Virus record (IMG/VR): IMGVR_UViG_3300012909_000001
Span: 1-33,688 of that record
Reading direction: 5' to 3' (one strand)
DNA: 33,688 bases
Origin: a virus
Taxonomy: Duplodnaviria; Heunggongvirae; Uroviricota; Caudoviricetes
Below the pieces are notes generated by a model. That model was not told the DNA's origin. It worked only from the letters and a program-made list of their open reading frames with translations, and did not search any database. Shown piece after piece: positions 509 through 19,530 of this stretch; position 1 is the first letter of the stretch, and the number at the start of each line of letters is the position of its first letter. Position numbers and translations under genes: made by a program.

Positions 509-3500
509 TTACCTTGAAGAGAACTCATCTTTCATTATCTCGTAGATTTCATCATCTTCATATCCTTCATTCTTTAACTCCTCTTTTCTGTCATCTCTTT
601 CTTCTTTAGTGACTTTTCTCTTTCTTCTTACAGATTTACCATCTTCTCCTTCTTTAATAAGTTCCATTACTTCTTTGTAAGTCATATCTTTAGATTTAGT
701 TGGAACCTCATCTCTCATTCTTTTTCTAAGCTCTTTTTCATACTTAGCAGGAGTTAAATCTTTTTCATCAAGTTCAGCTTTAATTTCCTTTTCTTTATCT
801 TCTCTGAATTTCTTAAGAGCTGCTTTAGGTCCACCACCTTTAATATACTTATCAATCCATGATGTAGTTTCGAATTCTTTCTTATCATACCAAGGCATTT
901 CATCTCTGTTAAGTATTCTTGGAAGAGGAGATACTTTAAATACATTCTCTTTGAAATCTTTCTTAGCATCTGCTGTAGCTATAGTATTCATAAGTTTACC
1001 TGCATCCCAAAGATACTTAAGGAAAGCAAGTCTTTGTACATCAGAACTTAAAGCTTGAGGATTAGTCCAGTTAGATATAGAACCAATCATTCTTGTCAAT
1101 TGATTATCTGCAAAATTATGAAATTCTCTTCTTTTAGATTTTTTATCATCATCATCATCCCATGTTAATTTCTTAATAAGTAGAAGCATTGCCATAAATG
1201 TAAGTTTGATTCCGAGTTCTTTAGCAATAGCTTGTAAATTACCTACTTCTTCAGAAGACATGTTACTATTTTTATAAGCTGTATTCTTTATTTTCAATTT
1301 AGAGTTAACAGCTTCAAGTGGATAGTTAAGAGTTTCTACTACTATAGACTGAGCAAAATCAATGAATTCTTTTGTATTATTAGCTTCTCTTTGTATTCCT
1401 TTTTCTCCACTATATAAGTCATAAAAATATTTGGCAGCAACAAATCCTGTAAGTCCTAATCCAGCTATTGCTGATAGAGGAGTAAGTCCAAATCCAGTAA
1501 ATAAAGTTAAAGCACCACCTGTGATTAAAGCAGGGTTATTCATTGCTAATGTTCTGTATCTACCAGTTTGTTTCTTCTTACCATCATTAATGATATCAAT
1601 ACCTTCTCCTTTAGAGAATCTTTGCATAGCATGTTCTGGCATCCATTTCATGAATAAAGTCATGGCTCTACCCCATATATTCTTAGTAGCATCAATAACA
1701 TCTAAATTATCATAGTTACCCTGAGACCTTGATATAGCATGTTTAATCTTATTCTTAGTCAGAAGATATTGATTATTAGTTAAATCTACTTCATCAATAT
1801 CAAAGTTCTCCCAGTTAGAAATATTTTCTACTGTCCTGAACTCTGGTTTAAGTACAAGCTTTCCATTTATATTATCATAAGCAGGAAACTGTTTACCATC
1901 AAATATAGGTCTCTCATTTCCTCCTATATCTTTTATCTTAGTATCCATAAGTACTGATAAAAGAATAGCACCCTGATTCTTGAACTCAGGATTCTCTACA
2001 GCAAATTGATAGATATTAGTTAATTTCTCATAATCAAACTGAGACTTATCTGCATGTCTTTCAAGCTCATTCTTTCTGTCCTGAATAAGATTCATATTAT
2101 GAACCAGTACTTGTAGCTTCTGAAGCTCTTGTACTTTTTTAGATTGCTCAGGAGTAAATCTTTCAGGTAAGAATTTAATGAAATTAGCAAATGCCATGAA
2201 ATTATTAGCTTCTGCTATATTACCTGACTTCCAGTACTTACCTGTCTTATCCATAACAAGACCTGAATTTTTACCTTCAATCCTGTTAAAGATACCTGAT
2301 ATAGGATTAAGACCAAGACCTTTTACAATAATTACTTTAAGTATACCTTGTATAATACCTGCTGTATTTAAATCAAGACCAAGCTCTTCAATCTTATTCT
2401 CAATATGTTTTTGGAACACAGCTTCGAATTGTTCTTCAGTTAGTTCTTTAATATCTTTCTCAGTTACTACTTCATAGTATTGAGGTCCATCTTCAGTTTG
2501 TTTTTGTACATATCTTACACCATCTACTTTAAAACTTGTATTTATACCTTTGTTATGTCCTATTTCTTTAAGACTTGTAAGATGTTTAAGAAGTTCTTTC
2601 TCATTATCTGTAAGTAAGTGCCCTTTCTTGTTATCTACATATTTCTTGATAAAAGGTATGGTAGACATTTTATTTATCATAGCAGCAAACCATGTTCCCT
2701 TACTCAGATTATCACCTAAGAAAGAAGCAGAGCCTCTGTATTTTTCATTCTCTCCTTTAATTACTCTGGCTACCCAATTCTCAAGCCTCTCAATACTTCT
2801 CTTTCTTTCCTCACCTTTCTCACTTTTTATAAGTTTATGTGAATCCACAATAAGATTAGCAATAGGCATTGTATCTTGTTTAGCTTTTTGCAATGCTGAC
2901 ATTTCAAGTAAAGCTGATGTTACTTTATTTATATCTGTAGAATAACTTTTAAGCACACTGGCTGTAGCTTCTTCTCTTGCCTGAGTATAAGTTCTTCCTT
3001 TTTGTACAAGAGCTTGTGTAAGCTCTGAAATCTCTCTTTTACTTCTGTCAGAATAGTTTTTAGATATACCATCTTTAGTGAAATCTCTACCTCTTTCATA
3101 GAACATTTCTTTAAATGCATGTAAAGACTTAGTAAATAACTTACTTCCTTTCTGTAATTTCTTAGCCTGAGCTATAGTCTCAAGAAACTCATTCTCAAAT
3201 TTAGCATAAGACATATCAGATATATCAGATTCATTATATAATGGATTGATATAATCTGAATAGATTTCTTTCATAAGTTGCCAGTACTCTAATTTATCAG
3301 GGTCCTGAAGTACTTCATTGAAATCTTTGTTATAGTATCCTGAGTCTGCATATATTTCATCACCTGTTGTTGAATCAAATGTTACATATATATCTTTAAT
3401 AGGAGCAAATCTTATATTCTGAACATCAGAATATACTGATTCTGTATTAATACCACCAGCTCTAAAGTTTACTTTCTCTGCTGAGTTAGGTGAGTTATAA

Positions 3501-6500
3501 TTAGATATGAAAGCCCAAGGGTCTACCTTAGCTACATCTCTGTGTCTGAATCTATTGTTTGTATCAGATAGTAATGATTCTTTCTGTATTTGTAAATTCT
3601 CAAGACTATTAAGTACTTTACTTATTTCTTCTTCATATAATGGACCAAGCATATCTCCAAGATAGTTCTCATATCTTAGCATTTCTGCTTCTGAAAACTT
3701 AAAGTGTTCTCCATACATATCTTCATACAAATCTTTTACAGATTTTATCTTTCTGAAATCAATAACTTCAGTATTTTTTTTAAGCCATTCTACTTTATCT
3801 TTGTATTTCTGTTCATCAGTTAAATCAGAATTAGAATTGATTTTTTTATATTCATAAAGTTTTTTGTTGAAAGCAGGAGAGATAACATTTATAATATTAC
3901 CTGTCTTATTTCCAGCTTCTGATTTTTCAAATATAAAGTCAAATCCTTTCTTATCCAGCTTTCTTATAGATAAAGCAAGTTTATCCTGGAATGTTTTAAC
4001 CTCAGCTTCTCTTAAAGCTACTTTAGTTTCCAGTGTAGATTTAAGTACTTGTGTAAACACACCATCATCTGTTGATGATGAAGTAATACCAAGAAAGGTT
4101 TTCTCAAGCCAGTTAATATCTTTTTTGTTTTCAAACATAGATGCTATATCTTCTGTTGTGAGAGCTTTGTTATTAATTACATTATTAACATAACTAATAT
4201 CAGATTCAAGTATTACATCTCTTAACTGATTAAGCTTATCTTTGTATTTCAGATTCAATTCATCTACTGCTAAAGATACTTTAGCAAAATCAGGATGATT
4301 ATAAGAAGCCAGAGTCTCTCTGTTAGGTTGTACTTTATTATCAAGAGATACTCCCTTTACAAGCTGATACAGAAATTCAAGTCTGTCTTTTATTTCATCC
4401 ATATCAAACTTATTATCTTTATATGAAGCATTATCAAGTACTTTGTTTAAATCTGTGATATCAGAATCAATAGCATGAAACATAAGATTAATATCATTCT
4501 TATTTAAAGAATCAATATCATTTTTGATTTTAGCTTCTATATTAGTAAGTCTGTCAATCTGAATAGCAATAGTTGATATATTTTTCTTTGGATTTCTTCT
4601 ATCTTTATATAAAGTCTTAAGAGCCTGTTTTACTTTAGTAAGTTGAGATTCTTTATAATTTTTATATTCAATGAAATTATCTGTAACAGGTTTAGTTACT
4701 TCTCTTTGTTCAAATCTTGAAAAAGAAAATTCATTAGAATCTTGTATGGCTTTTTGATTATCTAATTTTACTTCAAACCAACCATTACCATATTCATCAG
4801 TAGTTCTAATAGGATTATAACCTTGCTTCTTTAATATATTCTGAACTTGATTTTCATAAAAATTATATATAGGTTTTAATGCACCAAATCCTTGAGGGCC
4901 TTCTACATTTTCAAGTTCTTGTTTAAGTTGATTAATTTCATTTTGTTGAGAATCAGATAATTCAAGAGCATTATCAAATTTATTAGCTTTTAATATTTTA
5001 ATAGTATCATGCTTTCCTAGTGATTGACCATGTTTCCAATTATCATTATAGTCAGATTCACTCACAAGATTAAAACTTTTATCAGTTACTACTAAATATG
5101 CATCACCTATATCTGTACCAGGAATAAAATATTCACCATTTTTAACAACTTCTGGATATTGTTTTATTTGTTTTATTCTATCTTCTTTTTGTCTTTTAAA
5201 TTCTTCTAAAGTAGTATGACCTTCAACTTTACTAGCAGTATCTCCAGATGGAAATAAAACTTTTTCATATCCTTTTTTGGCAGAATCTTGAATAATAGAT
5301 TTAACAAAAAATGTTACCCAGTTATTATCTTTGTTTAAAAGTTGTAGAAATTTATTAGAAGTAGTATCAGGTAAAATATTACCACTATCTGCTGGTGGCA
5401 TTAAAGGATTAGGTTGAATTCTTTCAATTCTATTTTTATCTAAATTATCTTTATCTCTACCTTTCTGAAATAAATCAGATTGTAGTTCAAGTATTCTTCT
5501 TGTTTTTAATTCATCAGCACTTTTAGCTAATTCATCAAAAACATTCATAGGTTCACCTCTTTCTATTCTATTATTTACATCAGCAGAAGTTAATTCATCA
5601 CTTCTAAACCATCCAATACCATTATCAGTACTAAATTGAGCATGGCCTTTAATAGATGGAATAATTAGTGGAGTAGATATTTCTTGTTCTGTATAGTTAG
5701 CACCACCTGGAACTGTTAAGTTTGAATAATAACTGCTATTTTTTGAGTTATCTAAAAGTTTTCTGGTATTATCAAATTCTTCTTGTGTAATGTAAATATA
5801 ATCTTCTCTGTCATAAGAGTCATTTTCTGGGTCTGTTCCTTTAACTTTATAATATCTAAGTTCTTCAGATACTGGATTTTGAAGATTTTCATATGTATAA
5901 CCATCATGTACAAAATATGCACCTTCTTGATAATCTATATATTTTTTATCTTTAGTAATATCAACTTTAATGGTATAACTATAATTAGAAGCTAAATCTA
6001 AAAGAATATCTTCTCTGTTAGTTTTACCTGAATCAAATATTAATTGCTTTTGTTCTTTAGGAATACTAAGCTCTGTTAGTATTTTATCTAATGACCAGTT
6101 ATTTCTCTCTCCTTTATTAAATATTTCTACAGCTCTGTTAGAAGAAAGTATCTCTACAGCTTTTAATTTATAAGCTACTCCTTCATATTTAGAGAATGAT
6201 TCATCAGATTGATTCTGTAAACTCATAGCAGAAGCAAGCTTTCTTGATGGATGTATATTTAATTCAACACCATCTTTCATTTGGTTTAATGAAACTACAG
6301 TACCATACTGAGTAGCATGATACTGTGAGTTATATTGGCTTTCTATTTTTTTAACTTTACCATATAGAGAAGACTTAGATGGATTATTGGCATCATATGG
6401 AATGAAGCCAGCCAATCTGTCTGAGTACTTTGTAAACTTGATGTTATCAAATTTATCTAATAGTTCATTTTTTATTCTGTTCTGAATATCTTTTTCTGTA

Positions 6501-6514
6501 ACCTCACACGCCAT
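509..6514 (-). CDS. 2001-aa putative virion ejection/cargo protein with an N-terminal enzyme-like (E-x-QSD) domain and C-terminal hydrophobic segments
   Basis: Long ORF adjacent to the vRNAP, largely helical and charged. TM-like stretches near the C-terminus (LITGGALTLFTGFGLTPLSAIAGLGLTGFVAAKYF; IKLTFMAMLLLIKKL). The position matches the large co-ejected proteins that flank crAss-like vRNAP genes. Confidence 0.75.
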   Translation of the reverse strand: MACEVTEKDIQNRIKNELLDKFDNIKFTKYSDRLAGFIPYDANNPSKSSLYGKVKKIESQYNSQYHATQYGTVVSLNQMKDGVELNIHPSRKLASAMSLQNQSDESFSKYEGVAYKLKAVEILSSNRAVEIFNKGERNNWSLDKILTELSIPKEQKQLIFDSGKTNREDILLDLASNYSYTIKVDITKDKKYIDYQEGAYFVHDGYTYENLQNPVSEELRYYKVKGTDPENDSYDREDYIYITQEEFDNTRKLLDNSKNSSYYSNLTVPGGANYTEQEISTPLIIPSIKGHAQFSTDNGIGWFRSDELTSADVNNRIERGEPMNVFDELAKSADELKTRRILELQSDLFQKGRDKDNLDKNRIERIQPNPLMPPADSGNILPDTTSNKFLQLLNKDNNWVTFFVKSIIQDSAKKGYEKVLFPSGDTASKVEGHTTLEEFKRQKEDRIKQIKQYPEVVKNGEYFIPGTDIGDAYLVVTDKSFNLVSESDYNDNWKHGQSLGKHDTIKILKANKFDNALELSDSQQNEINQLKQELENVEGPQGFGALKPIYNFYENQVQNILKKQGYNPIRTTDEYGNGWFEVKLDNQKAIQDSNEFSFSRFEQREVTKPVTDNFIEYKNYKESQLTKVKQALKTLYKDRRNPKKNISTIAIQIDRLTNIEAKIKNDIDSLNKNDINLMFHAIDSDITDLNKVLDNASYKDNKFDMDEIKDRLEFLYQLVKGVSLDNKVQPNRETLASYNHPDFAKVSLAVDELNLKYKDKLNQLRDVILESDISYVNNVINNKALTTEDIASMFENKKDINWLEKTFLGITSSSTDDGVFTQVLKSTLETKVALREAEVKTFQDKLALSIRKLDKKGFDFIFEKSEAGNKTGNIINVISPAFNKKLYEYKKINSNSDLTDEQKYKDKVEWLKKNTEVIDFRKIKSVKDLYEDMYGEHFKFSEAEMLRYENYLGDMLGPLYEEEISKVLNSLENLQIQKESLLSDTNNRFRHRDVAKVDPWAFISNYNSPNSAEKVNFRAGGINTESVYSDVQNIRFAPIKDIYVTFDSTTGDEIYADSGYYNKDFNEVLQDPDKLEYWQLMKEIYSDYINPLYNESDISDMSYAKFENEFLETIAQAKKLQKGSKLFTKSLHAFKEMFYERGRDFTKDGISKNYSDRSKREISELTQALVQKGRTYTQAREEATASVLKSYSTDINKVTSALLEMSALQKAKQDTMPIANLIVDSHKLIKSEKGEERKRSIERLENWVARVIKGENEKYRGSASFLGDNLSKGTWFAAMINKMSTIPFIKKYVDNKKGHLLTDNEKELLKHLTSLKEIGHNKGINTSFKVDGVRYVQKQTEDGPQYYEVVTEKDIKELTEEQFEAVFQKHIENKIEELGLDLNTAGIIQGILKVIIVKGLGLNPISGIFNRIEGKNSGLVMDKTGKYWKSGNIAEANNFMAFANFIKFLPERFTPEQSKKVQELQKLQVLVHNMNLIQDRKNELERHADKSQFDYEKLTNIYQFAVENPEFKNQGAILLSVLMDTKIKDIGGNERPIFDGKQFPAYDNINGKLVLKPEFRTVENISNWENFDIDEVDLTNNQYLLTKNKIKHAISRSQGNYDNLDVIDATKNIWGRAMTLFMKWMPEHAMQRFSKGEGIDIINDGKKKQTGRYRTLAMNNPALITGGALTLFTGFGLTPLSAIAGLGLTGFVAAKYFYDLYSGEKGIQREANNTKEFIDFAQSIVVETLNYPLEAVNSKLKIKNTAYKNSNMSSEEVGNLQAIAKELGIKLTFMAMLLLIKKLTWDDDDDKKSKRREFHNFADNQLTRMIGSISNWTNPQALSSDVQRLAFLKYLWDAGKLMNTIATADAKKDFKENVFKVSPLPRILNRDEMPWYDKKEFETTSWIDKYIKGGGPKAALKKFREDKEKEIKAELDEKDLTPAKYEKELRKRMRDEVPTKSKDMTYKEVMELIKEGEDGKSVRRKRKVTKEERDDRKEELKNEGYEDDEIYEIMKDEFSSR
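4760..5730 (-). other. Discrete domain in the 2001-aa protein (GGANY...GWFRSD...LELQSDLFQ...W..FVK..I..SAKKGYEKV.FP...FYE), possibly a divergent GNAT fold
   Basis: The motif string is visible in the translation and resembles a recurrent domain of large phage virion proteins. The strand/helix order fits GNAT motifs A and B, with an ~110-aa insert. The fold call is inference. Confidence 0.4.
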
Positions 6515-6534
6515 AACTTATTTTTTTGAATGTA

Positions 6535-6542
6535 CAAAGATA
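6535..6542 (-). promoter_or_regulatory. Bacteroidota sigma70 -7 element (TATCTTTG) upstream of the 2001-aa gene
   Basis: Minus-strand TATCTTTG matches TAnnTTTG in the 38-bp intergenic gap, 20 nt before the ATG. No TTG -33 element at 19-nt spacing. Confidence 0.5.
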
Positions 6543-6552
6543 CATATTTTTA

Positions 6553-9500
6553 TTAACATTTCTTAATCTCTGGTAATCTTGATTGAGAGAATTTTTCTCC
6601 CATCTCTGTTTGTATTTTGGAGGGTTTAATTTCTAATCCTATTTCCTGAGCATATTTATATAAAGCTGAAGCAATACCTTTTCTTCTAAAGTTTTGGTTT
6701 ATAAATATATTATTAGAATAATATTTACCATCTGTATCTTTCCAAAAACTTACAGTGCCTACTGTTTGGCCTTCTCTTTTTACTGATAGAGATAACTTAT
6801 CTTTATTACTTCTTTGTTCAGGGTTATCTATTTTTCCATTTATACCATCATATATCTCAAAATCAAATTTATCCCCATCTTTACTATAAAATTCTCTACC
6901 TGAAAACTCTTCTTGTGGACCACCTGTTTCAAATGTTCCACTATTGAATTTATTAAGGAAATTATCTATTGAGAAGTCTTCCTGTTTCATTTCTTGTATC
7001 TCATTAACCTCTATAGTTTGTACATTTATATTTGTATTACTTAAAAGTTCAAATACTGTATTTCTTGTAGCATCTGAATATGTACTTCCTGTTATAAATC
7101 TAATCATGGAAGCAATAGCATCTTTAAAGTGGTCTAGTAAAGTCTTACCATTATGCATTATATTATCAAGTGTGTTGGTAAAATCTTCTGATACAAATAC
7201 TCCTGCTGTAAACTCATATAAGTTCTTAGTATAGTATTCATTTGGTAACTTCTGCTTAGCTATATTATGAAGAGCTACAAGCTTATCTATAAACACAGGA
7301 GTATTTTCTCCAGGAGTATAAACATCATCTGTCATAGTACCATATTTGTCTAATTGACTTATTGTTATACTATGTATAATCTCTTCAAGAAGAATTTCTT
7401 CAACCACACTATTCAGATTATCTGCATTGATACCTTTCTTCATCATAAGCTCTGATATAAGATTAGGATTCAGATAGATTGTATTATCAGTCTTTCTGTA
7501 AACTCCTGTACTTAAATCTCCTTTAGATGTCATTACAGCTTCAATCTTAACTTTAGTTGTATTGTCTATATAAGGAGTAAGTTGTTCTGCAAACTCTCTG
7601 TATTTACTATTAGGAGAATTATATAATTGCTCCATCAGAGAAGTAATACCTTTAGACAAATCAAGAACCTGGTCCAGAACTAAAGCAGGTGTTGCCTGTA
7701 TAGCTCCTGAATTATTCACAACTGTAGTATCTTTACCAACTTCAGGATATATAATAGATTTCTGATTTGAGTTATTTGGATTGTATTCATTAAATCCAAA
7801 TGTACCAAGTACAGGAATTTGTACATATTTATCTCCATCCCATTGGAATAGTTTGTATTGATTATCTGAAAGCTTAATACTTGTATCTCTCATAGCAATG
7901 AACTGATAAGCATTATCTCTTAGTGAGAATTCAGTAAGCTCATTGAAGAATCTTATTTTGTTTATCTCTTCTTTACTTGCATTGTATCTGTTTCTTTCTT
8001 TATTAGCTTCAAGATTAACCATAGCAAACTCTTCTATGTTTGTATTCACAGGAGAGAAGATTCTGGCTTCCTCAGGATTATGCTGATAGAACTGTTTAAT
8101 GAAGTTCTCCATCAAATTAGATATATTCCAACCTGCTCTGCTTCTGTTTATATTTCTGATATTCTCAGATACTCCTGCTGCTGTTAAATATTTAACATTA
8201 ACAAAGTCTCTGAATCCAATAGCTCCATTTTCATTATTAGCAAGATAAGCATATGATGCTAAGTCTTGAGCTAACTTTCTTGGAGTCATTGGCTCACCAT
8301 TAAATGTACCTAAATCAGTTTTATCATCCTGGATTAATTCCATAAATGAATTATACTTATCTGTTTTATCAAAATTAGTATTGAAATCAGTTTGATGCTT
8401 AATAATAGATGGTGCTCCTGTTGTCTGGATTCCATCAAATTGTAAAGCTTTCAAAAGCTCATTAGTATACATAAGAGGATATCTCTTAGATACTTTGAGA
8501 TTATTCATATAACTTGCAAGAGATTCATTATCATCTCTGTCAAAGAATAGTCTTTCTCTCTCTGCTGATACATCTCCCTGGAATAATCCTATGTTATTAG
8601 TAGAGTATAAATAATCTTTCATAGATGAAACTACTCTGTATTGCAGGTCCATCTTTTGTTTCTTACCTAAGTCTTTACCTTTGTTCTCAATAATACTATC
8701 TATATAATCAGTAATAAATTGCTGTTTATATGGGAAGTTAATATCCATTATATCCTCTGCTGAAGATACTGATTGTATAAGTACAGTACCTTCAGTTGTA
8801 GTAGGTTTGATATAGAAATCTCCAACTAATGTATAATCATTCTTATCCACAGGAGGATTTTCCTGAAAGTCATCTTTATGAATGAATTTACCAACAAGGT
8901 CTTTCACATTACTGATTTCTTCTTCATATCCCATATCATTAATACCTTGTATTCTTTCAAGTACATTGAAATAAGATATACCTAACCCTGATGTAGAAAG
9001 ATTAATAAGAGATTGGTATTTACCAAGATGCTTAGCTTCTTCTTCTAATCTGAAGAATTTCTGAAGTGTAGCAAGTTGTATACCACCATCCCATGTTTTT
9101 AAATCTTCCTGGTTGATAAGATTATCATACAGAGCATCACCTGTCATTCTTGCAGAAGCTAACTGGTAATCTACTTCATTCATAAACTCAGTTCTGTTGA
9201 AGTTACCTTGCTCATCTCTTGATACTTTAATACCTTGACCAAATTCCTGTATAAGTTTACCTATAATAGTTTGTTCTGCATTAGAGTCAAACTCTGATGT
9301 AATAGATTTATTTTGTTCTTTAAGTTCTACATATCTTCTTAAAATAGGTTGAGAGATGAATAGAGATGGTAACTGTACACTTGATGGATTATTAGTATCC
9401 CTCTTAGTAAAGTTAGCCATATCAAATCCTCTGAATGTTAATTGTATTAATACATTCATTGTATAAGGATTTTCATTCCTTTTACCCATAATCTGAGCTT

Positions 9501-12500
9501 TGATATTATCTGTAGAGGAGTTCTGATTCTCTGTGTGGACATCTCCAATGTTTCTCTCTCCATCAAGTGTACCAATCTCTCCTAATGTACCATCTGATAC
9601 ATACGGACCTATCACTACTACTCTTGGAGCATAACCTGATATCTCTCCATCAACTGTTATTGTATCTTGTATTTTTAATTTATTTTCTAATCTTTCCATT
9701 TGAGCCTGGAATGTTACAGCATTAGAGTGTCCTCCAATACCAGTCTTTCCATCAGCTCCTAACTTCATCTGGTCTCTCTGATAATCATCAGAATAAGGTG
9801 TAAAGTAAGTATTATCTACAGAAGAGTTTAATCTGTCATTAATCAGGTTAGCTGTCTGTGTTGCATTATCAAATGAAAGAATCTTATTAATTTTCTTTTG
9901 TATATTTATATCTGGTGATGAGTATACTGATTTGTATATATCAACCATAGCATTCTCAAGCATCTTAGTTCTTCCTTTAAGAGAAGCAAACTTAGATTTA
10001 CCTTCTTCAGAAGTTAAGTGTGGAAGATATTCATCTTCAAACATTGATGCCATAAGCCTGTCTAAAGAACTGTTATTCTCAGAGTACTGTAACTTAGATA
10101 TCTTACCATTATCTTGTACTTCATAGTTAGATTTATATACTGTTCTTTTATCAATATCAAAATCCTCTCCTAACTGCTGTGTATGTTCTTTAGGAACTAC
10201 TAACATATCTCCTGAGGCTTCTGGTAAGAAGCCAACTACTCTTAAAATAGCACCTGACTGGTGAGAAGATGTAGGAATCCTGAATGAGAAGTTAGATAGA
10301 AGCTCATCATCAATCATATCCTGATTAAGTACAAGTATTCCATTCTGCATAGTTGAGTATGGCTCTTTAGTCAAATCTATAAGCTCTGTCTTTTTCTTAC
10401 CATCAGTTCCTATAGTAGTCTTTCTGAATTTAGATTGAAGCAGAACTTCAGACTCTTTCAGAGTTCCATCAACTACAGTAGCTTTAAGCTCTCCTGTATG
10501 ATTAGGGTCTAACCATACTACCTGAGATTTAACTTTAGAATCTAAATCAGCATCAGCAGTTACTTTCTCAAATCCTTCTGATGAAGATGAGATATGTTGA
10601 TTACCAGGAAGATTAATCTGAATTAATCTGTTGGTAATAATAGCCTGCATTAAAGATTCGAACTTATTAGAACCATTAGATAACCAGATAGGTAACATGA
10701 ATTCAAGTTCTCCCTGAGTATAAGTAAGTTCAAGATTATCAATAATCCCTTCAGGATATTGTCTTGTTGTTGTCTCTCTGTCAAGTAAAGCATGAAGAAG
10801 TTTAATAGTTTCATTAGTATCTACTGGTCTTCTTGTATCTCTGTTAAGTCCTAATTCATCATATAGAAGTTCTTTCTGTATATCAAAATACATAGACTCT
10901 GCATGAAACTTAATCTTATCTAAGTCTCTACCAGATACCATTCCATCTGTTGAAACAATCTTATCTTCATCTGCAAGTCTGTTATTTATAGTCTGAAGAA
11001 GTCCTTCTCCAAATACATTAGGAAATATTTTATTCTCTATTTTATTAATACCATTACCTAAGATAATTTTCCACATCTGTGAACCCATAGTAGTCATATC
11101 ATCCTGGTTCTTTTTAATGAACTTGGCTGTCTTGTATGGAGTATCCTGTTGAATCTTAAAGTTGTTTCTATCAAGAACAAGTGAAGATTCAGTTAATTTA
11201 TTACTATTGTATAACTCATCAAATGGAATGTTATACAAATCATTTACAGTTAATTTAGTATTGACAGCACCTACTTTATTAGCAGTCTGGAATGAAAGTC
11301 TTACATTCTTACCAGTCTTTTCTTCAAGTGATTCCATTTGTCTTCTCACAGCATCAAGTTTGAAATCCTTAGTCATCTGTGGAAGAAGTGGAAAAGAAGA
11401 AGATTTAATATACATAGTTCTGTTTACATTAGGTTTCCCTTCTGCATCATTGAATATGACATTACCAGAGTAAACTGGTTTAAGTGGATTCATTACTACA
11501 GCTAATTCTTTCTTATCAAGTTCTTCACCTGCAAGAAGTTTATTATAAGCTGATTGTACAGTAGTTCTTTCCTCAGTAGTTAATCTACCTTGTCTAAATA
11601 GAACATCAATATGCTCTTTCCATGTAGTATATTCCTGAGCATCAGTTCCTTCTATTTGGAAGTAACCTGATATCTCAGAGTTAGTATCTGCAAGTGTACT
11701 GAGAATTTTACTTCTTGTACTGTCAAGTGCATCTAATTGGTCTTCAAAATCCTCATTTGTATTTCTTGTTTCATATAAAGCTTGTATAGAATTCTCTGTC
11801 TCATTTAACTTAGTTAATAATACTTCATTGTTTTCAGATACAGAACCATAGTATTGTGTAATGAACTCCCTTGCTGTTGAAGTCATCTTAACAGGGTCAT
11901 TAACAAATATTTGTACATACTTATCTTCTTTAGAGTTAGCAAGTTTATTACCAGGGGCAATAAGCATAGCCATTCTCTTAGATATAGATTCTCCAATAGC
12001 TTTAGAGAAACCTACATTATCAATCTCTCCTGTTTCTTTATTTGTGAATTTTTTAACAGATGGAGCATACAAAGCCATATCACCTGCTATAAGCTGGTAA
12101 GTATTGTTTTGATTCAGATACTGGTTTACAACAAAATCATAAGCAGCAATCTGTGCTGTCTTATCTGTAGACAGAGTTGTATTAGCTCCTTTCTTAGATT
12201 TAAGGTATTTACTGTCAAAGAAGTTTATACTTAATTCTTTTGTTTCTTCTCTTTTAACAAAACCAGCATCATACCATGAACCTTTATTAGTTGTTGTATT
12301 TACTTTAGAAAGTACATCTGTGTGTATTACAGCAGCTATAATATCCTTAGCCTGGTCTCTGAACTTATCTCTGATAGCAGCCATTGTATCTAAGTCTTTA
12401 CTACCTTTAGATATAATATCATGTATAGTAGCACCATTCTCTGCTCTCATATTATTAAGTTCAGGAATAGATAAAAATCTCTTAGCAGCACCATCATAGT

Positions 12501-15500
12501 TTTTAATATTAGTTGGAGTGTTATAAGTACTGACAATCCTGTCAAACTCAGCAGCATATATCTGGTCAGTAACAAAGTTCAGAACTTCATCTGAAAGTAC
12601 TACATTATTATCTATCTCATTAAAGTCTTTGTAATCCAAATCTAATAAGGCAGTAGAGTATAGTACCATCTGTTCTTTATCAGATAGTGCAGGATTAAAC
12701 ATATGTCCCATTCTGAATTTCAAATCAGAACCAGGAATTACTTCTCCAAGCTTTCTCAATGTATTTTGGAAGAAAGCATATTGTGTAAGCATGTTATCTG
12801 TTGTAGCAAGCTTGTTTATCTTTCTGTCATCATATACTTTTTGTTTTACTTGTTTAATAGCTTCAAGAGATACGAAACTTACATCATAATAAGTTCTAAA
12901 CTTATCATTTGTTTTCAAAAGTTCAAGTATGTAGTTTCTTTTAGATAATGGTATCTGAGATAAAGCTAAATGATAAGGAGAATTAACATCCTTAAGTTGT
13001 TCTTTAATATCATAAACCATCATCTTCTGAATAGCTCCCTGAATAGATTTAGAACCTACCCTGAAAGACTTAGCTACTCTTGTACCATTAAGTTCTATTT
13101 CTAAATCAATTAAGCTCTCTACAACTCCTTTAGCATTTTCATAAGGATTATTTTCAGATTTCTCTAAAGTAATATTCTCTGTGTTTCTGTTATCAGGAGA
13201 ATTCATAATATCTCTTAAAGTAGATTTGAATACTCCAAGAATACCTGAGCTTGTAGTTATATTAAAACCTTCTTTCTCAATAAGAGCTGTTACTGTATTA
13301 GCATTTACATCAATACCAAGTTCAGATAATATCTCAGATACATCAGGTTGTGTCATAGTATCTGCCCTTAAAGCTTCAATTCTCTCTATAAGAGATTGTA
13401 CTGTTTGTTTGTTATAAACTCTTTCTTCATTTATGGTTTTGAACAAGTCAGAATTTCTGAAATTAGTCTGCCATTGTTGTTGCAATTTAATATCAGATGA
13501 AGATGAGTTTGGATTAATAATTCTAAGTGAATATGTATTTGTATCTCTGTTATAAGCATAGAGAACCATTTGCATATCTAATTTAGATTGAATCATTTTA
13601 TATAATATCTCATTTTGAATTTCTTCAGATGAGTTGTTTATCTTATTTAATATCTGGTTATACACAGGTACATCTTTCTTAGTCTCAAGTATAGAGATTA
13701 AATCCTCTACAGAAGATGGAAGACCTACCATAACTTCCACAAGAGATTGTATAACATCATCTACATCAATGTAATCATTAAGGTAAGCAAAATTAGTAAT
13801 ATTCTCCCTTGTTCTTGGTTTCTGTCTGTTAATACCTGCAAAGAATATTTTCAGATTATTAGAGAATGTAAGCTTAACATCTTTTTCAAGTGCTGACATA
13901 TTGAAACTATATTCAACTTCTCCATTATCATCAGCTATAACATCTTCTGAACCTGTTAACTCTTCTGCCAGGAACCTTTCGAACTTTTTATATAAGTCTC
14001 CTTTAGGAGTTGTACCTAAACCATTAGATATGATTTTATTTTTTTCTTTTACAACAGTTTCTAATTGTTCTATCTTCTCATTGAATCTGTCAATAAGAGG
14101 TAACATATCAGTATTATTAAGTGCTGTAAGGTTAGCTACTGTATCTTTGATTTTATCAATCTCTGGTTGCAGATATGAATCTACAGAAGAGTCTATCTTA
14201 GCTACTATATCAGCAAGATTAACTGTACCACCCTTAGTACTTATATCTGAAAGAACCAGATTAAATAAAGAGTTAGTTAAGACTTTCTGTTGTATAGGAC
14301 TAAGTGAACTTATCTGATTACTTTGAATCTTATCAAGCTCAGCTATTTGTTCTGGTGTAAATTCAAATCTTGAATAAAAATTAACATCATCGTCATTTAT
14401 CTCCATACCTTTAAGTATCCTCATAGCTTCTTCTTTAAGAGCATCAGGTATAGCTGTTATAGCTTTCTGTAATGTAGGATTATCTTGTTCATTTAACTCC
14501 TGAGCTGTCTCCATAGCAGCTTCCTGGATTTGCTCCTGCATTGTAAGAGTAGGAGCAACCTGAGATGCCTGAGCAGTTCTGAAATAAATCATAGGTTGTA
14601 CATCAGTAATCCATTTAGACTTACCATCTTTACCTTGTATTTCAAAAGATTTAATATTAGTCTTAACAGAATCTTTTATATATCCTTCATAAGTATTCTC
14701 TCCATGTTTATTTTCATATGGAACAATAGAACCTGTTTCAGATATCTGTACAAAAGGTCTGTTTTTATTTAATTGAGATTTAGATATGTCAAAGTGAGTC
14801 TTTCTAAACAGACCATCATTACCTTTGAAGTTTTTCTCAAGTATCTGAAGTACATAAGGTATAGACCTTTCAGTTATATTACCGAGGTTAATACCTGGTA
14901 AACTATCATATCCTTTTTCATTTCTGGCAACAGGATTTCCATCCTTATTAACAATCTTAATTACATTCTTATCAACAGATATATAATTAGTATTAATAGG
15001 AAACTTAGTTCTTCCTGTAGCAGAGTTTACACTATTGTTCTCAAGCTTATCTACCATTCTTGAATTCATACTGTCAACAGTGACAAACATATTCATGTAT
15101 TCACCTATCTCAAATTGAATATCAAGTCTTGTAGTAGCTCTGATTTGTTTTTGTATTTCTTTAGCTTTAGATAATGTCATTCCATATTGAGATTCTAATT
15201 CAGAATTCAATATAGGATTATTACCACCATTCAAAAGAACAGAGGCAATAATAGAATGTTTTATATTGTTATAAGCTACATCATTAATATCTTCTTGTTT
15301 ATGAGCATCATTAGTTATTACAGGAAGTGCAATTTGTTCTCCTGTATTAACTGTTCTGATTTCATATATTTGTCCTACCTGGAATTTATTAGCATCAAGA
15401 TTATTTACAAGCTTTGCATTTACAACTCCTGTAGAATCTTGTAGTTCATCAAATTTACTGGCTACAACTATCTTAGTATCTCCTGTAGCTTCAGTAAGAC

Positions 15501-18500
15501 TTATAGGTTTATTATCTGATTCTAATTTATTAAGTTTGAATAGACTACCAAATTTTCTCTCAGAGATAACTATCTTATTATTACCTGCAAGTATATTTTG
15601 TCTTAGTTCCTGATTTTCAAGTTTACCTTTCTTAATAATTTCTCTCTGTGTTTCAACAGGAGCAATATTAGAAGTATTATACCAATCAGTATCATGTACA
15701 TAGAATACAGCTTGTCCATCCAGTTGAGCAACCATAGGAAGCTTATTGTTATATTGGACAGAACCTGGTTCTACATTATATTTCTTAATCCAATTACCAA
15801 ATGTAATTTCTGATTTAACCCATGTATTATCTTTGAATTCCCAATCTGCTACTTTAAATGAATTTACATTATCAGGTACAACAACTTCAAGTGCTGTTCC
15901 TTCTTTAACAGCATCATAATCAAGTACGAAATGATTATCCATTTGTTCTGATTCATTAAGCTGAGCAAGTACAGGTAACTTAGATAATGTACCATCTGAA
16001 TTAGGTACATCTTTATATTGCACACCAAGGTATGCAGCTTTACTCTGTGGAGTAGCTGTTTGAAATTTCTCAGAGTAATTACCATCTTTCTCTACAGGTC
16101 TGTTATCTTTATCATAAGATACAGTCTTAGAATTATCTACAATAGCAGATGTAACAGCAAGATTAGTCTGAGTGATTACATCATCAGGAGCTAAGAAACC
16201 AGAAAGCATAGTTTCAGATAAAGTATCTAAGTTATAAATGTTATCATATATTTCTCCTGCATTGGAAGTATCTCTTCCAATAGCATTCCATGCATACTCA
16301 TATGCTTTAAACATAGTATCTACATTATCATAAGAAGTCTTGGCTATCCTGTCATTGATAAAATCTTCGAATTGAGCTTCCTTATCTAATTCCTTATCAA
16401 GCTTATCTGCTATTCTTGTATGTAAATCCACTAATGCTTTCTGTTGCTGTGGAGTTACTTTCTGAGCCTGGAACTCTCTTGGAGAGAACTCTTCAGGTCC
16501 ACCTGAATTAAGTAAACCTGATGAAAGCATTTTAGATAGTAAGTCATCACCAGCTTTATCATCTTCATCCTGCTCTTTAGTTCCCTCAGGAGTTCTTTCA
16601 ATTTCAGGTTCTACTACCGGAGCAGGTTCCTGGAAATTAGGATTAACTTCTGTGATTACTTCTGTAGCAGCTATTTGTGATTTCTTATTTTCTGCTGTAG
16701 CTACTAATCCTTCTGTAGCTATATTTGTTTTTACTGCATCTTCAACTACTGCATCAACCTGGTCTGCTGTTTGTGCATTCTTAATAGTTTGTACAGCTAC
16801 TTTTTCTTTTTTCTTATTAGCTTCTTCCTGGAAATATTCCTGGTTATAAGGATTAGTCTGTCTTGATAATTCAATTGTATTTTGGAAATCAACCTCATCA
16901 AATTTCTTTTTGAAATCTCTTAATTGTAAGTACTCATTGATATTACCTATATTATCCTTAACCAGATTATTTATATGTCTTACATAATTGTTATTTTGTT
17001 CAATATCTAATAAACCACCCTCTACAGAATCAATTAGTGAATCTACAGATTGATAGTCTTCAAGTCCTCTTGCTTTGTTATAAGCTTCAAACTCTTCTTT
17101 ACCCTCAAACTTAATAGCATTAAGTCTTTCCTGTAACTGAGTACTTGTTTGTTTGTTCAGAACTTTTTGTGCAGCAAGTTGAGCTATAGTCTCATAGTTA
17201 GGCTTATCTCCATGTTTTTCCTGTACATGAGATAGTTCTTTTACTACAGCTAAAGCTGCTGGTATATTATTTCTTGTTTGTTCTGATAAGTCCTGATTGG
17301 TTTTAATTCTCTCAAGACTTCTTTCAAAAGTATCAAGTGTACCTGTCTGCATTGCTTTAACAGCAAGATTAGAGAAACTCTTTTTCTCTAATTTGTCAGC
17401 TTCTTCATTCTTACCATCAGTTCTTAACTTAGCTATCTTAGCCTGGTAATCATCTACTTCAAATAAAGTATTACCAGTATTCATAACTATATGCTGAGCC
17501 AGTTGTTCATCTGTCACAGCTTTATCTATATTTTTATATAGTTGTTTAATTTCTTTTTTAGACTCTTTATTTTCTTTATACTGTTTCCTGTATTCAGGAC
17601 TTGTAGTATAGTCTAATGCATGTTTACCTGTACCTAATGCAGTAAATCCTCCACCCATTAAAAGAGTTTGTGCTACAACATCCATATAGAATGATGGATT
17701 AGCAAGCTCTTGTAATTGTTTTTGATAATCTTCTGTATAAGTAGGAGTAAGCTGTGTAGATATCTCTTCAAGAACCTCACCTGGAAGCCCATGAAAAATC
17801 TTAGCAGCACCTGTATGTCCTGCTACATTTGAACCAATCTTGCCAATAGCAGTATCATTAATTAATTCTGCTCCTCTTCCATAAGCTTTTGAAAGCTGTT
17901 TAAGTCCAGGAGTTTTTTCTGCTAATCTTGTAAGAGGTTTAAACATTTTATCCCCTATTTCTCCTACATACTTCTCAGAACCAAGTTCTTTCAGAGACTC
18001 AGTGTATCCATATATTAAAGCATCATCAGCACTTATATCTTTTTGTATATCTCCTGTATTAGGGTCATATATTTGATTAAGGTCAGACTTAACTTTATCA
18101 ATTTGATTTCTTATATCAAATAATCTAGCATTATCTTCAGCAGACTTATTTACTTTATTATCTAATTCTTTTTCTTTTTGTTGAAGTATAACAATAGTAT
18201 TTGCAGCCTCTTTCTCAAATGCTACTCTTGCAGATTTGGAAACAAGTATTTTTTCATTACCTTCAGAGTCTGTAACTAATTGAGTTTGCCCAATATATTT
18301 ATTAGCAGTATTTTGGTATGTCATAGGAGTAGCAGTAGCTTGAGCTAAAAGCTCACCTGTACCAATAAGTCCTTTCTCTACATATTTAATAGCAGCAAGT
18401 TTAGCTAACTGTGTTTTAGTTAGCTGAGTTCCCATATCTCCTAATAGAATTTTAAGACCTATTCTCTCAGCAAGTGGAGTTACTACAGCTTTAGTTGCAG

Positions 18501-19530
18501 CACCACCAAGAGCTTCTACAGGACCTGTTGCTATCATCTGTTCAGCAAATACAACACTCTGTCCTGTACCCTGTCCTGTTCTATATAAGAATCTGTTTTT
18601 AGATAAATCAAGACTCTCAACTTGTTGTTGAGTATTATAAGCTTTAAGCAAATCATTCTCAGTATCAGACAAAGGTTTTTCAGCTCTTACTTTTTTTACT
18701 GTGGCTGAAACATTGAAACTATTAATAAGAGAATTCAAACCAAGTGTAGGATATTCTTTTGACATAGTTCCTAAACCACTTAATACTCCATCTTCATTAT
18801 TGATATATTTTTCTAGTATTTCTTTTTGTTGCTCAAGCATATCAGCAGTAGCAGCACCAGAGAAATCATCAGGGTCAACAGAAGTTAACCACCCACCCAT
18901 TTTAGCTATTTCTATAGATTTAGCTTTATTTTCAGGAGTGCTTCTTGCAGCAGCTTTCTGCTTATATACTTCAAGTTGTGCATTAACCTCTTTAAGTTTC
19001 TCTATAGCAATAGGAGTCTCAATCTTTCTTCTTTCTTTAATAAGGTCTTTATACTTCTGCTTATCTTTACCCATACCGGCAGTATCAGGTGTAAGAGCAT
19101 CTGCTAACCAGTAAAAAGGTTTCATAAAATTAAGACCTGTTGATAAAGGAGTTAATCCTGTATTACCAGAAAAAGATGAATTCTTATCAGCTTGCTTAAC
19201 AACATTAAGAGATTCAAGTTTACTCATCTCTTCTTTAATTCCTTTCAGAGTTTTAAGATTAGGAGTATCACCTTTATCAAACAAGACTTGCTCAACACCA
19301 TCTTTTGGTTCGAGCTTCTTTTGTTCTTCTTGTTGTTGTACTTGAGCTTCATAATCACCTACTTGCTTCTCAATTTCTTTTTGCTGCGCAACTTCAGCAT
19401 CAATCTCATTAAGTTGTTCATCAGTAAGTTTAGGCATCTCTGGCATTTTTGCCAGTACACTCTCATTACCATATATACTACTTAAAGGATTCTCTACCTG
19501 TCCTTGTATGTATGCTCTCTTCTTTCCCAT
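6553..19530 (-). CDS. 4325-aa virion-packaged two-barrel RNA polymerase polyprotein (crAss-like vRNAP) with N-terminal ejection-protein-like region, zincin-like domain and C-terminal GNAT
   Basis: GEDFDIDK catalytic motif (DFDID, the crAss-like vRNAP form of DxDxD as in phi14:2 gp66), preceded by FRIPTSSHQS (R-x-P of the beta'-like barrel). EGTDAQ and YIKSS resemble beta-like barrel motifs. LEEIIH...YEF and FRRKGIA motifs lie near the C-terminus. Confidence 0.92.
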   Translation of the reverse strand: MGKKRAYIQGQVENPLSSIYGNESVLAKMPEMPKLTDEQLNEIDAEVAQQKEIEKQVGDYEAQVQQQEEQKKLEPKDGVEQVLFDKGDTPNLKTLKGIKEEMSKLESLNVVKQADKNSSFSGNTGLTPLSTGLNFMKPFYWLADALTPDTAGMGKDKQKYKDLIKERRKIETPIAIEKLKEVNAQLEVYKQKAAARSTPENKAKSIEIAKMGGWLTSVDPDDFSGAATADMLEQQKEILEKYINNEDGVLSGLGTMSKEYPTLGLNSLINSFNVSATVKKVRAEKPLSDTENDLLKAYNTQQQVESLDLSKNRFLYRTGQGTGQSVVFAEQMIATGPVEALGGAATKAVVTPLAERIGLKILLGDMGTQLTKTQLAKLAAIKYVEKGLIGTGELLAQATATPMTYQNTANKYIGQTQLVTDSEGNEKILVSKSARVAFEKEAANTIVILQQKEKELDNKVNKSAEDNARLFDIRNQIDKVKSDLNQIYDPNTGDIQKDISADDALIYGYTESLKELGSEKYVGEIGDKMFKPLTRLAEKTPGLKQLSKAYGRGAELINDTAIGKIGSNVAGHTGAAKIFHGLPGEVLEEISTQLTPTYTEDYQKQLQELANPSFYMDVVAQTLLMGGGFTALGTGKHALDYTTSPEYRKQYKENKESKKEIKQLYKNIDKAVTDEQLAQHIVMNTGNTLFEVDDYQAKIAKLRTDGKNEEADKLEKKSFSNLAVKAMQTGTLDTFERSLERIKTNQDLSEQTRNNIPAALAVVKELSHVQEKHGDKPNYETIAQLAAQKVLNKQTSTQLQERLNAIKFEGKEEFEAYNKARGLEDYQSVDSLIDSVEGGLLDIEQNNNYVRHINNLVKDNIGNINEYLQLRDFKKKFDEVDFQNTIELSRQTNPYNQEYFQEEANKKKEKVAVQTIKNAQTADQVDAVVEDAVKTNIATEGLVATAENKKSQIAATEVITEVNPNFQEPAPVVEPEIERTPEGTKEQDEDDKAGDDLLSKMLSSGLLNSGGPEEFSPREFQAQKVTPQQQKALVDLHTRIADKLDKELDKEAQFEDFINDRIAKTSYDNVDTMFKAYEYAWNAIGRDTSNAGEIYDNIYNLDTLSETMLSGFLAPDDVITQTNLAVTSAIVDNSKTVSYDKDNRPVEKDGNYSEKFQTATPQSKAAYLGVQYKDVPNSDGTLSKLPVLAQLNESEQMDNHFVLDYDAVKEGTALEVVVPDNVNSFKVADWEFKDNTWVKSEITFGNWIKKYNVEPGSVQYNNKLPMVAQLDGQAVFYVHDTDWYNTSNIAPVETQREIIKKGKLENQELRQNILAGNNKIVISERKFGSLFKLNKLESDNKPISLTEATGDTKIVVASKFDELQDSTGVVNAKLVNNLDANKFQVGQIYEIRTVNTGEQIALPVITNDAHKQEDINDVAYNNIKHSIIASVLLNGGNNPILNSELESQYGMTLSKAKEIQKQIRATTRLDIQFEIGEYMNMFVTVDSMNSRMVDKLENNSVNSATGRTKFPINTNYISVDKNVIKIVNKDGNPVARNEKGYDSLPGINLGNITERSIPYVLQILEKNFKGNDGLFRKTHFDISKSQLNKNRPFVQISETGSIVPYENKHGENTYEGYIKDSVKTNIKSFEIQGKDGKSKWITDVQPMIYFRTAQASQVAPTLTMQEQIQEAAMETAQELNEQDNPTLQKAITAIPDALKEEAMRILKGMEINDDDVNFYSRFEFTPEQIAELDKIQSNQISSLSPIQQKVLTNSLFNLVLSDISTKGGTVNLADIVAKIDSSVDSYLQPEIDKIKDTVANLTALNNTDMLPLIDRFNEKIEQLETVVKEKNKIISNGLGTTPKGDLYKKFERFLAEELTGSEDVIADDNGEVEYSFNMSALEKDVKLTFSNNLKIFFAGINRQKPRTRENITNFAYLNDYIDVDDVIQSLVEVMVGLPSSVEDLISILETKKDVPVYNQILNKINNSSEEIQNEILYKMIQSKLDMQMVLYAYNRDTNTYSLRIINPNSSSSDIKLQQQWQTNFRNSDLFKTINEERVYNKQTVQSLIERIEALRADTMTQPDVSEILSELGIDVNANTVTALIEKEGFNITTSSGILGVFKSTLRDIMNSPDNRNTENITLEKSENNPYENAKGVVESLIDLEIELNGTRVAKSFRVGSKSIQGAIQKMMVYDIKEQLKDVNSPYHLALSQIPLSKRNYILELLKTNDKFRTYYDVSFVSLEAIKQVKQKVYDDRKINKLATTDNMLTQYAFFQNTLRKLGEVIPGSDLKFRMGHMFNPALSDKEQMVLYSTALLDLDYKDFNEIDNNVVLSDEVLNFVTDQIYAAEFDRIVSTYNTPTNIKNYDGAAKRFLSIPELNNMRAENGATIHDIISKGSKDLDTMAAIRDKFRDQAKDIIAAVIHTDVLSKVNTTTNKGSWYDAGFVKREETKELSINFFDSKYLKSKKGANTTLSTDKTAQIAAYDFVVNQYLNQNNTYQLIAGDMALYAPSVKKFTNKETGEIDNVGFSKAIGESISKRMAMLIAPGNKLANSKEDKYVQIFVNDPVKMTSTAREFITQYYGSVSENNEVLLTKLNETENSIQALYETRNTNEDFEDQLDALDSTRSKILSTLADTNSEISGYFQIEGTDAQEYTTWKEHIDVLFRQGRLTTEERTTVQSAYNKLLAGEELDKKELAVVMNPLKPVYSGNVIFNDAEGKPNVNRTMYIKSSSFPLLPQMTKDFKLDAVRRQMESLEEKTGKNVRLSFQTANKVGAVNTKLTVNDLYNIPFDELYNSNKLTESSLVLDRNNFKIQQDTPYKTAKFIKKNQDDMTTMGSQMWKIILGNGINKIENKIFPNVFGEGLLQTINNRLADEDKIVSTDGMVSGRDLDKIKFHAESMYFDIQKELLYDELGLNRDTRRPVDTNETIKLLHALLDRETTTRQYPEGIIDNLELTYTQGELEFMLPIWLSNGSNKFESLMQAIITNRLIQINLPGNQHISSSSEGFEKVTADADLDSKVKSQVVWLDPNHTGELKATVVDGTLKESEVLLQSKFRKTTIGTDGKKKTELIDLTKEPYSTMQNGILVLNQDMIDDELLSNFSFRIPTSSHQSGAILRVVGFLPEASGDMLVVPKEHTQQLGEDFDIDKRTVYKSNYEVQDNGKISKLQYSENNSSLDRLMASMFEDEYLPHLTSEEGKSKFASLKGRTKMLENAMVDIYKSVYSSPDINIQKKINKILSFDNATQTANLINDRLNSSVDNTYFTPYSDDYQRDQMKLGADGKTGIGGHSNAVTFQAQMERLENKLKIQDTITVDGEISGYAPRVVVIGPYVSDGTLGEIGTLDGERNIGDVHTENQNSSTDNIKAQIMGKRNENPYTMNVLIQLTFRGFDMANFTKRDTNNPSSVQLPSLFISQPILRRYVELKEQNKSITSEFDSNAEQTIIGKLIQEFGQGIKVSRDEQGNFNRTEFMNEVDYQLASARMTGDALYDNLINQEDLKTWDGGIQLATLQKFFRLEEEAKHLGKYQSLINLSTSGLGISYFNVLERIQGINDMGYEEEISNVKDLVGKFIHKDDFQENPPVDKNDYTLVGDFYIKPTTTEGTVLIQSVSSAEDIMDINFPYKQQFITDYIDSIIENKGKDLGKKQKMDLQYRVVSSMKDYLYSTNNIGLFQGDVSAERERLFFDRDDNESLASYMNNLKVSKRYPLMYTNELLKALQFDGIQTTGAPSIIKHQTDFNTNFDKTDKYNSFMELIQDDKTDLGTFNGEPMTPRKLAQDLASYAYLANNENGAIGFRDFVNVKYLTAAGVSENIRNINRSRAGWNISNLMENFIKQFYQHNPEEARIFSPVNTNIEEFAMVNLEANKERNRYNASKEEINKIRFFNELTEFSLRDNAYQFIAMRDTSIKLSDNQYKLFQWDGDKYVQIPVLGTFGFNEYNPNNSNQKSIIYPEVGKDTTVVNNSGAIQATPALVLDQVLDLSKGITSLMEQLYNSPNSKYREFAEQLTPYIDNTTKVKIEAVMTSKGDLSTGVYRKTDNTIYLNPNLISELMMKKGINADNLNSVVEEILLEEIIHSITISQLDKYGTMTDDVYTPGENTPVFIDKLVALHNIAKQKLPNEYYTKNLYEFTAGVFVSEDFTNTLDNIMHNGKTLLDHFKDAIASMIRFITGSTYSDATRNTVFELLSNTNINVQTIEVNEIQEMKQEDFSIDNFLNKFNSGTFETGGPQEEFSGREFYSKDGDKFDFEIYDGINGKIDNPEQRSNKDKLSLSVKREGQTVGTVSFWKDTDGKYYSNNIFINQNFRRKGIASALYKYAQEIGLEIKPSKIQTEMGEKFSQSRLPEIKKC
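6556..6888 (-). other. C-terminal GNAT acetyltransferase domain of the vRNAP polyprotein
   Basis: 'QTVGTVSF...YSNNIFINQNFRRKGIASALYKYA' matches GNAT beta3 and motif A (acetyl-CoA binding R/Q-x-x-G-x-A). It ends '...PSKIQTEMGEKF'. Confidence 0.8.
7100..7520 (-). other. Zincin-like metallopeptidase domain (EEIIH at 7372-7386; distal E in NLYEFTAG)
   Basis: 'GVYRKTDNTIYLNP...ILLEEIIHSIT...KNLYEFTAGVF' follows the zincin layout, with HExxH replaced by EExxH. Zincin-like domains are known in crAss-like vRNAP-region proteins. Confidence 0.7.
10150..10164 (-). other. RNAP catalytic DFDID motif
   Basis: GAT TTT GAT ATT GAT on the minus strand, in frame with 6553..19530. Confidence 0.92.

Follow-up and report, generated by a model that had tools for sequence, protein, structure and literature searches.

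We analyzed a 33,688-nucleotide (nt) stretch of DNA (hereafter, the window; positions 1 to 33,688 of IMG/VR virus record IMGVR_UViG_3300012909_000001, Caudoviricetes), whose source record is a complete virus genome of 100,434 bp with direct terminal repeats. We found that two giant proteins encoded next to each other, a virion RNA polymerase protein of 4325 amino acids (aa) (minus strand, 6553 to 19530) and a predicted ejected protein of 2001 aa (minus strand, 509 to 6514), contain one cysteine (Cys) each, the last residue of the former and the third residue of the latter. This pair is conserved in relatives, recurs at the gene breaks of crAss-like polymerase blocks, and covaries with gene fission and fusion. 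We propose that, in the virion, the last residue of the polymerase protein is probably joined by an interchain disulfide to Cys3 of the ejected protein encoded after it.

An earlier inspection of the window (the sequence-only reading) had reported only two Cys in the 7408 aa of four putative ejected proteins, at the C terminus of the virion polymerase and at the N terminus of the next protein, and a recount matched this exactly. The Cys of the 4325-aa protein (residue 4325; codon TGT, 6556 to 6558, followed by TAA TAA) closes a tail motif, R-L-P-E-I-K-K-C (minus strand, 6556 to 6579), and that of the 2001-aa protein (MACEV...) is encoded by TGT at 6506 to 6508, downstream of a start codon that is supported by an M-[AS]-C N terminus in all homologues. 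Two cargo-like proteins of 520 aa (minus strand, 19540 to 21102) and 562 aa (minus strand, 21102 to 22790) have no Cys, whereas the neighboring structural proteins are rich in it (21 in a muzzle-like tail protein of 1846 aa, 9 in a 326-aa protein, and 8 in a 232-aa protein), so the difference claimed between muzzle and cargo also held. The eight other open reading frames (ORFs) of the window contain 46 Cys in 3558 aa (1.29%), a rate at which 96 would be expected in 7408 aa (Poisson P of two or fewer, ~1e-38). If each giant protein is allowed a single Cys, the probability that it occupies the last residue of one and one of residues 2 to 5 of the other is, arithmetically, ~5e-7.

The ejection proteins of Schitoviridae (N4 gp50-52 and DEV gp71-73) are Cys-free, which was ascribed to their passage through the periplasm (PMC11445570). 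Cys is suppressed in the same way in the window, both in the giant virion polymerase and in the proteins predicted to be ejected with it (2 in 7408 aa versus 1.29% in the neighbors), which fits the Cys avoidance put forward by the sequence-only reading, an idea already published for N4-like phages (PMC11445570). N4-like proteins, however, have no terminal Cys at all, whereas depletion is combined here with a retained pair of terminal Cys. The N4-like polymerase is also a single chain from a different fold family, and the literature describes the phi14:2 gp66 family as structurally distinct from the N4 enzyme.

Both Cys were kept in all relatives that we found, which bears out the expectation that a C-terminal Cys and an M-x-C start are conserved in orthologous gene pairs. 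A single Cys, at position 3, is present in all eight database homologues of the 2001-aa protein, whose N-terminal domains are 55 to 69% identical to that of the window protein. Four full-length homologues of the polymerase protein (P0010-13) terminate in RLPEI(K/H)(K/N)C, in which the Cys is followed by no more than one residue and is the only Cys of the protein in three cases. Three IMG/VR loci (L002-4) and Flavobacterium phage FpV4 have the same terminal pair and the RLPEI..C ending, and the equivalents of the 520- and 562-aa cargo proteins in relatives contain no Cys. The nearest cultured relatives are the FpV4-group phages of Flavobacterium psychrophilum (Fipvunavirus). In their gp32/gp33 pair, the FpV4 4287-aa protein ends in RLPEIKNCN and the next protein starts with MAC, although identity over the polymerase protein is only ~27% and the FpV4 partner, of 1596 aa, has one extra Cys at position 1461. 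Fipvunavirus is listed under Caudoviricetes without an order; the earlier framing within Crassvirales does not hold for these nearest cultured relatives, which are not formally placed there. The polymerase region of the window is 23 to 28% identical to that of Crassvirales members.

Conservation around the junction is concentrated on its two sides. Of the 126 residues that close the polymerase protein, conservation is limited to the final ~10, in which R, P, E, I, and C are invariant, and the region ahead of them is unalignable (alignment A2). The first 105 residues of the partner (minus strand, 6200 to 6514) are its most conserved part, with a mean column identity of 72% in alignment A1 and 58% in alignment A3 and an invariant C3, and PHROG 14721 matches the 2001-aa protein at aa 1 to 105 only. 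An AlphaFold2 model of this domain had a predicted local distance difference test score (pLDDT) of >90 for aa ~10 to 100 and placed Cys3 on a short tail ahead of helix 1. The two sides resemble a short motif on a tail and the domain that would receive it, with aa 1 to 105 as a candidate docking module for the polymerase tail. A Foldseek search with the modeled fold gave no match in the PDB at an E value of 0.001, the weak rows (type III secretion chaperones) not being significant, and when the C-terminal 126 aa of the polymerase protein and the N-terminal 150 aa of the partner were modeled as a complex, a control scored higher.

The same arrangement was found in distant relatives. In phi14:2, the crAss001-like phages, the p-crAssphage-like phages, and nine other annotated genomes, each junction of the polymerase block consists of a C-terminal Cys facing a Cys at positions 3 to 5. 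In phi14:2, the sole Cys of g067 is its last residue, the polymerase g066 has Cys only at positions 3 and 2179/2180, and the sole Cys of g065 is at position 3. In the crAss001-like phages PhiCrAssBcn2, cr128_1, and DAC15, Cys is found at the C terminus of gp47, at both termini of gp50, and at the N terminus of gp49, and this pattern is kept even though gp47 is encoded on the opposite strand. The same pairs occur in the p-crAssphage-like phages, crAss002, cr271_1, cr1_1, cr50_1, cr60_1, and cr7_1, the last two with recoded stop codons; the rule is also valid in Intestiviridae and Suoliviridae, recoded genomes included. Of the polymerase-block proteins, only those of phi14:2 and crAss001 have been shown by mass spectrometry to be present in virions (bioRxiv 10.1101/2020.03.07.982082; PMC10172136). 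The blocks of these two phages (gp67-gp66-gp65 and gp47-gp50-gp49, respectively) resemble that of the window in their homologous two-barrel DFDxD polymerase, in the Cys rule, and in their place after the muzzle and cargo genes. They differ in having two junctions rather than one, since the window polymerase is a single 4325-aa protein, and in that the latter carries a GNAT domain at its C terminus. In addition, the window partner shares only its N-terminal domain with its close clade, and no HExxH zincin motif was found in it, whereas phi14:2 gp65 has been described with one.

For crAss002 gp33 (L014:13151-13249), the rule suggests a start 32 codons farther downstream than the annotated one. 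Near L014:13247, an internal M-S-C start agrees with the N termini of the p-crAssphage-like and cr271_1 orthologues, and L092 and L096 are alike; the annotated start is thus probably 32 codons too far upstream, judging from these sequences. We also noted in cr128_1 (L011:9094-9339) a small protein annotated as a thiol-disulfide isomerase/thioredoxin, which could bear on the making or avoiding of virion disulfides.

Since an IMG/VR scan with the N-terminal domain returned only three loci, we based a wider survey on the polymerase catalytic region. It covered 80 loci of at least 507 matches (23 to 45% identity) and 117 junctions flanking a polymerase ORF, and a Cys was counted as terminal within 10 residues of the end. 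Both Cys were present at 69 junctions and neither at 47; none had the C-terminal Cys only, and a single, borderline junction had the N-terminal Cys only, its upstream Cys being 14 residues from the end. This co-occurrence gives a Fisher p of 4e-32 without phylogenetic correction. The terminal states change at least 13 and at least 10 times on a FastTree tree built from the catalytic region, and in phylogenetically independent contrasts, the partner Cys changed in the same way in 9/9 (p = 0.004) and ~7/7 (p = 0.016) cases. Polymerase ORFs contain 149 Cys in 327,416 aa (0.046%), 76 of which are terminal, compared to 1.13% in the nonblock ORFs of the same loci. Five fully fused polymerases (L039, L040, L046, L079, and L083; 4799 to 5331 aa) lack Cys altogether, and no partner ORF lies downstream of them. 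An N-terminal Cys is never seen in the first protein of a chain, nor is a C-terminal Cys seen in the last, L070 being the sole exception to the latter.

Among 72 distinct pairs, the C-terminal Cys is followed by 0 to 2 residues in 63 (full range, 0 to 14), and the N-terminal Cys is at positions 3 to 5 in 68 (full range, 3 to 7). Lys flanks the C-terminal Cys in ~35 to 40% of the cases at each of positions -2, -1, and +1, which would favor a reactive thiolate. Many partners outside the window's clade begin with M-x(1-4)-C-P-N (e.g., MAKCPNKN and MATCPNRK), and many upstream tails end in K-K-C-[KN] (L018-L097). These clade-specific tail and head motifs may coevolve.

The strongest outside support for a disulfide comes by analogy from a solved structure, that of cyanopodophage A4, in which cryo-electron microscopy (cryo-EM) showed the C-terminal helix of gp27 docked in a cleft of gp26 and a Cys1715-Cys5 disulfide (PNAS 2025, PMC12002296). 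The A-4L genome encodes gp27, of 1717 aa, and gp26, of 1114 aa, in adjacent genes on the same strand, and each protein has one Cys, the bonded residue, located 2 residues from the upstream C terminus and at position 5 of the downstream protein. The window pair has the same signature, a sole Cys at the extreme C terminus followed by a sole Cys within the first 5 residues. A4 differs in having no virion RNA polymerase and a single pair rather than chains of 2 to 4 proteins. BLASTP of the window proteins against A4 gp26-29 gave nothing below an E value of 0.2, and the likeness appears to be functional and not by descent, as far as BLASTP shows. The A4 paper handled the bond as a structural detail and drew no rule from it (PMC12002296). 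Disulfides that join subunits are also known from crAss001 virions (PMC10172136).

Because both Cys are conserved, form a facing pair at each gene break, and are absent from fusions and because the same signature in A4 is a disulfide resolved by cryo-EM, we favor a disulfide at this junction. From the Cys pattern we infer, along with the bond itself, docking, ordered ejection, and reductive release. The R-L-P-E-I-K-K-C tail of the polymerase would probably dock first on the 105-aa N-terminal domain of the partner. With a bond from C terminus to N terminus, chain polarity is preserved and only stubs of a few residues remain, so that the two otherwise Cys-free giants would form a near-linear thread of ~6300 residues with a single polarity. 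This thread would pass the tail channel unfolded or partly so and in a fixed order, wrong disulfides being avoided in the periplasm, and the reducing cytoplasm would then cut the bond and release the polymerase. A broader version is that all split crAss-like polymerase blocks are rejoined posttranslationally by terminal disulfides, so that a thread of >6000 residues would act like the fused protein of other lineages, be ejected in a fixed order, and be cut by the reducing host cytoplasm, as a redox-gated "split polyprotein"; on this generalization our judgment is evenly divided.

Several points weigh against a disulfide at the junction. The bond has not been seen chemically or structurally in any crAss-like phage, and the cargo is unresolved in the crAss001 structure (PMC10172136). 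Phages are assembled in the cytoplasm, which is reducing, and those of the gut live in the absence of oxygen, conditions that bear on when the bond would form and on whether it does. The sequences alone would also allow C-C or N-N homodimers and, for the middle proteins of a chain, an intramolecular N-to-C bond. At L070, a C-terminal Cys occurs with no partner gene next to it, and two cargo-like proteins of Intestiviridae, one of CrAssphage LMMB (L008:539-3124; 861 aa, Cys860) and crAss002 gp30 (L014:2456-4129; 557 aa, Cys550), have their single Cys near the C terminus without an N-terminal Cys in the next protein. Finally, the window proteins have no BLASTP homology to A4 gp26/gp27, which makes this precedent an analogy.

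An alternative that we consider unlikely is that each terminal Cys bonds elsewhere, either in homodimers (C-C or N-N) or with a Cys-rich portal, ring, or muzzle protein, and thereby anchors the cargo in the capsid without forming a chain. The tail proteins of crAss001 are rich in disulfides (PMC10172136); the unpaired C-terminal Cys of the Intestiviridae cargo proteins and that of L070 also fit such anchoring. Bonds of this kind would not, however, account for the equal numbers of C-terminal and N-terminal Cys in the polymerase block of each genome, for the joint gain and loss of both Cys in the independent contrasts, or for the lack of outward-facing Cys in the proteins at the chain ends, and the A4 bond is heterotypic, joining a C terminus to an N terminus (PMC12002296). 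More doubtful still is that the termini meet but that their Cys bind a metal ion or engage in other thiol chemistry. Covariation of the Cys fits any direct contact, and a metal bridge is possible in the reducing cytoplasm. Two thiols alone, however, do not make a usual zinc site, neither Cys is flanked by a conserved His, Asp, or additional Cys, and the only solved case of the signature is a disulfide.

It is very improbable that the pair is a neutral leftover of gene fission or a chance occurrence in proteins so poor in Cys. The presence of the pair does track gene breaks, but it is kept at 23 to 45% identity in the most conserved region of the polymerase, about half of the Cys of the polymerase ORFs are terminal (76/149), the state changes are repeated and concordant, and fused forms have no Cys at the old junction. 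The sequence-only reading had left three options for the two Cys, a disulfide chaining the proteins tail to head in ejection order, a shared metal site, and a relic of the fission of a larger polyprotein. Conservation, recurrence at gene breaks, loss in fusions, and the A4 precedent point to the first, the second gained no support, and the third was right in that the pair tracks fission, although a pair under selection is no mere leftover.

A nucleotide signal at the junction (a promoter, a reinitiation site, or a packaging signal) of which the TGT codons would be part is hardly credible: the junction/N-terminal-domain part is the only one to find FpV4 when window positions 5500 to 7600 are searched by blastn, and the spacer contains a promoter-like box, but the spacing varies between an 8-nt overlap and 354 nt and the Cys is encoded by TGT as well as by TGC, which places the signal in the protein and not in the DNA, the position of the Cys varies (3 to 7 from the start and 0 to 14 residues from the end), and the opposite strand of the gp47 gene in crAss001-like phages, with the Cys kept, rules out a DNA or translational-coupling signal. 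The box in question, TATCTTTG (6535 to 6542, read on the minus strand), lies 20 nt ahead of the ATG of the 2001-aa gene, in the 38-nt spacer (minus strand, 6515 to 6552) that separates it from the 4325-aa gene and that also contains the second in-frame TAA. It fits TAnnTTTG, the -7 promoter box of Bacteroidota, and a similar box (TATCTTTG or TACATTTG) occurs in the same spacer of L002, L003, L004, and FpV4. The 2001-aa gene may thus have its own promoter, with this element as a candidate; the box is a matter separate from the Cys codons.

Two other roles for the terminal Cys were considered and rejected. Intein, N-terminal-nucleophile, or ligation chemistry does not agree with an N-terminal Cys that is never right after the Met (positions 3 to 7, including MQC and MFC) and with the lack of any other Cys or intein block. 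A lipoprotein-type Cys is at odds with the lack of a signal peptide ahead of Cys3 in the sequence.

Every large gene of the window is on the minus strand, and the order of transcription is small tail/ring-like proteins, the 1846-aa muzzle-like protein (minus strand, 22820 to 28360), the 562- and 520-aa cargo-like proteins, the 4325-aa protein, the spacer, and the 2001-aa protein. Muzzle-like, Cys-free cargo, and polymerase-block genes in this order on one strand of an ~100-kb podophage genome correspond to a crAss-like virion RNA polymerase cargo block. The 1846-aa protein matches PHROG 15100 (virion structural protein) and, weakly by blastp, phi14:2 g071, its name as a muzzle coming from synteny only. 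The 562-aa protein matches PHROG 15413, and the position of the 520-aa protein is that of phi14:2 g068-g070 and crAss001 gp45/gp46.

The 4325-aa protein matches PHROG 16227 (virion structural protein; E value, 5e-268), contains the DFDID catalytic motif of two-barrel polymerases at aa 3123, and is similar to aa 952 to 1385 of phi14:2 gp66 (blastp E value, 1e-26), which identifies it as a DFDxD polymerase. A GNAT-like acetyltransferase domain occupies aa 4240 to 4299 (window, 6634 to 6813), just ahead of the C-terminal tail, and is lacking in the closest homologues according to the alignment. This module of ~100 aa recurs near the end of phi14:2 g067, in gp127 of Cellulophaga phage phi13:2 (a Cys-free virion protein of 1990 aa), and in a Tunturiibacter jumbo-phage protein that carries the annotation ADP-ribosyltransferase toxin.

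The C-terminal third of the 2001-aa protein has two hydrophobic segments, aa 1384 to 1402 (window, 2309 to 2365) and aa 1762 to 1780 (window, 1175 to 1231), which suggest that the protein might insert in a membrane after ejection. Similar hydrophobic stretches are seen in its homologues. A Pfam search of the 2001-, 520-, and 562-aa proteins returned no family, and a sequence search of the PDB with the 2001-aa protein gave no match.

While the depletion of Cys in ejected proteins has been published, we found no description of terminal Cys pairs, or of a rule for their pairing, in crAss-like phages in the searchable literature, and neither the phi14:2 preprint (bioRxiv 10.1101/2020.03.07.982082) nor the crAss001 atlas (PMC10172136) mentions the Cys of the polymerase-block proteins. 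In the atlas, where the cargo was unresolved, the order of extrusion was considered to depend on packing and on mutual interactions of the proteins (PMC10172136). How the cargo of crassviruses, including the three polymerase-associated giants, is stored and ordered is an open question that the Cys rule addresses, as it offers a concrete and cheap hypothesis for the order of the proteins, their polarity, and their separation in the host. The rule also helps annotation, by correcting start codons, as for crAss002 gp33, and by assigning giant ORFs to one chain even when they are on opposite strands. If it is true, the split polyprotein would also tell which end of each protein faces which partner.

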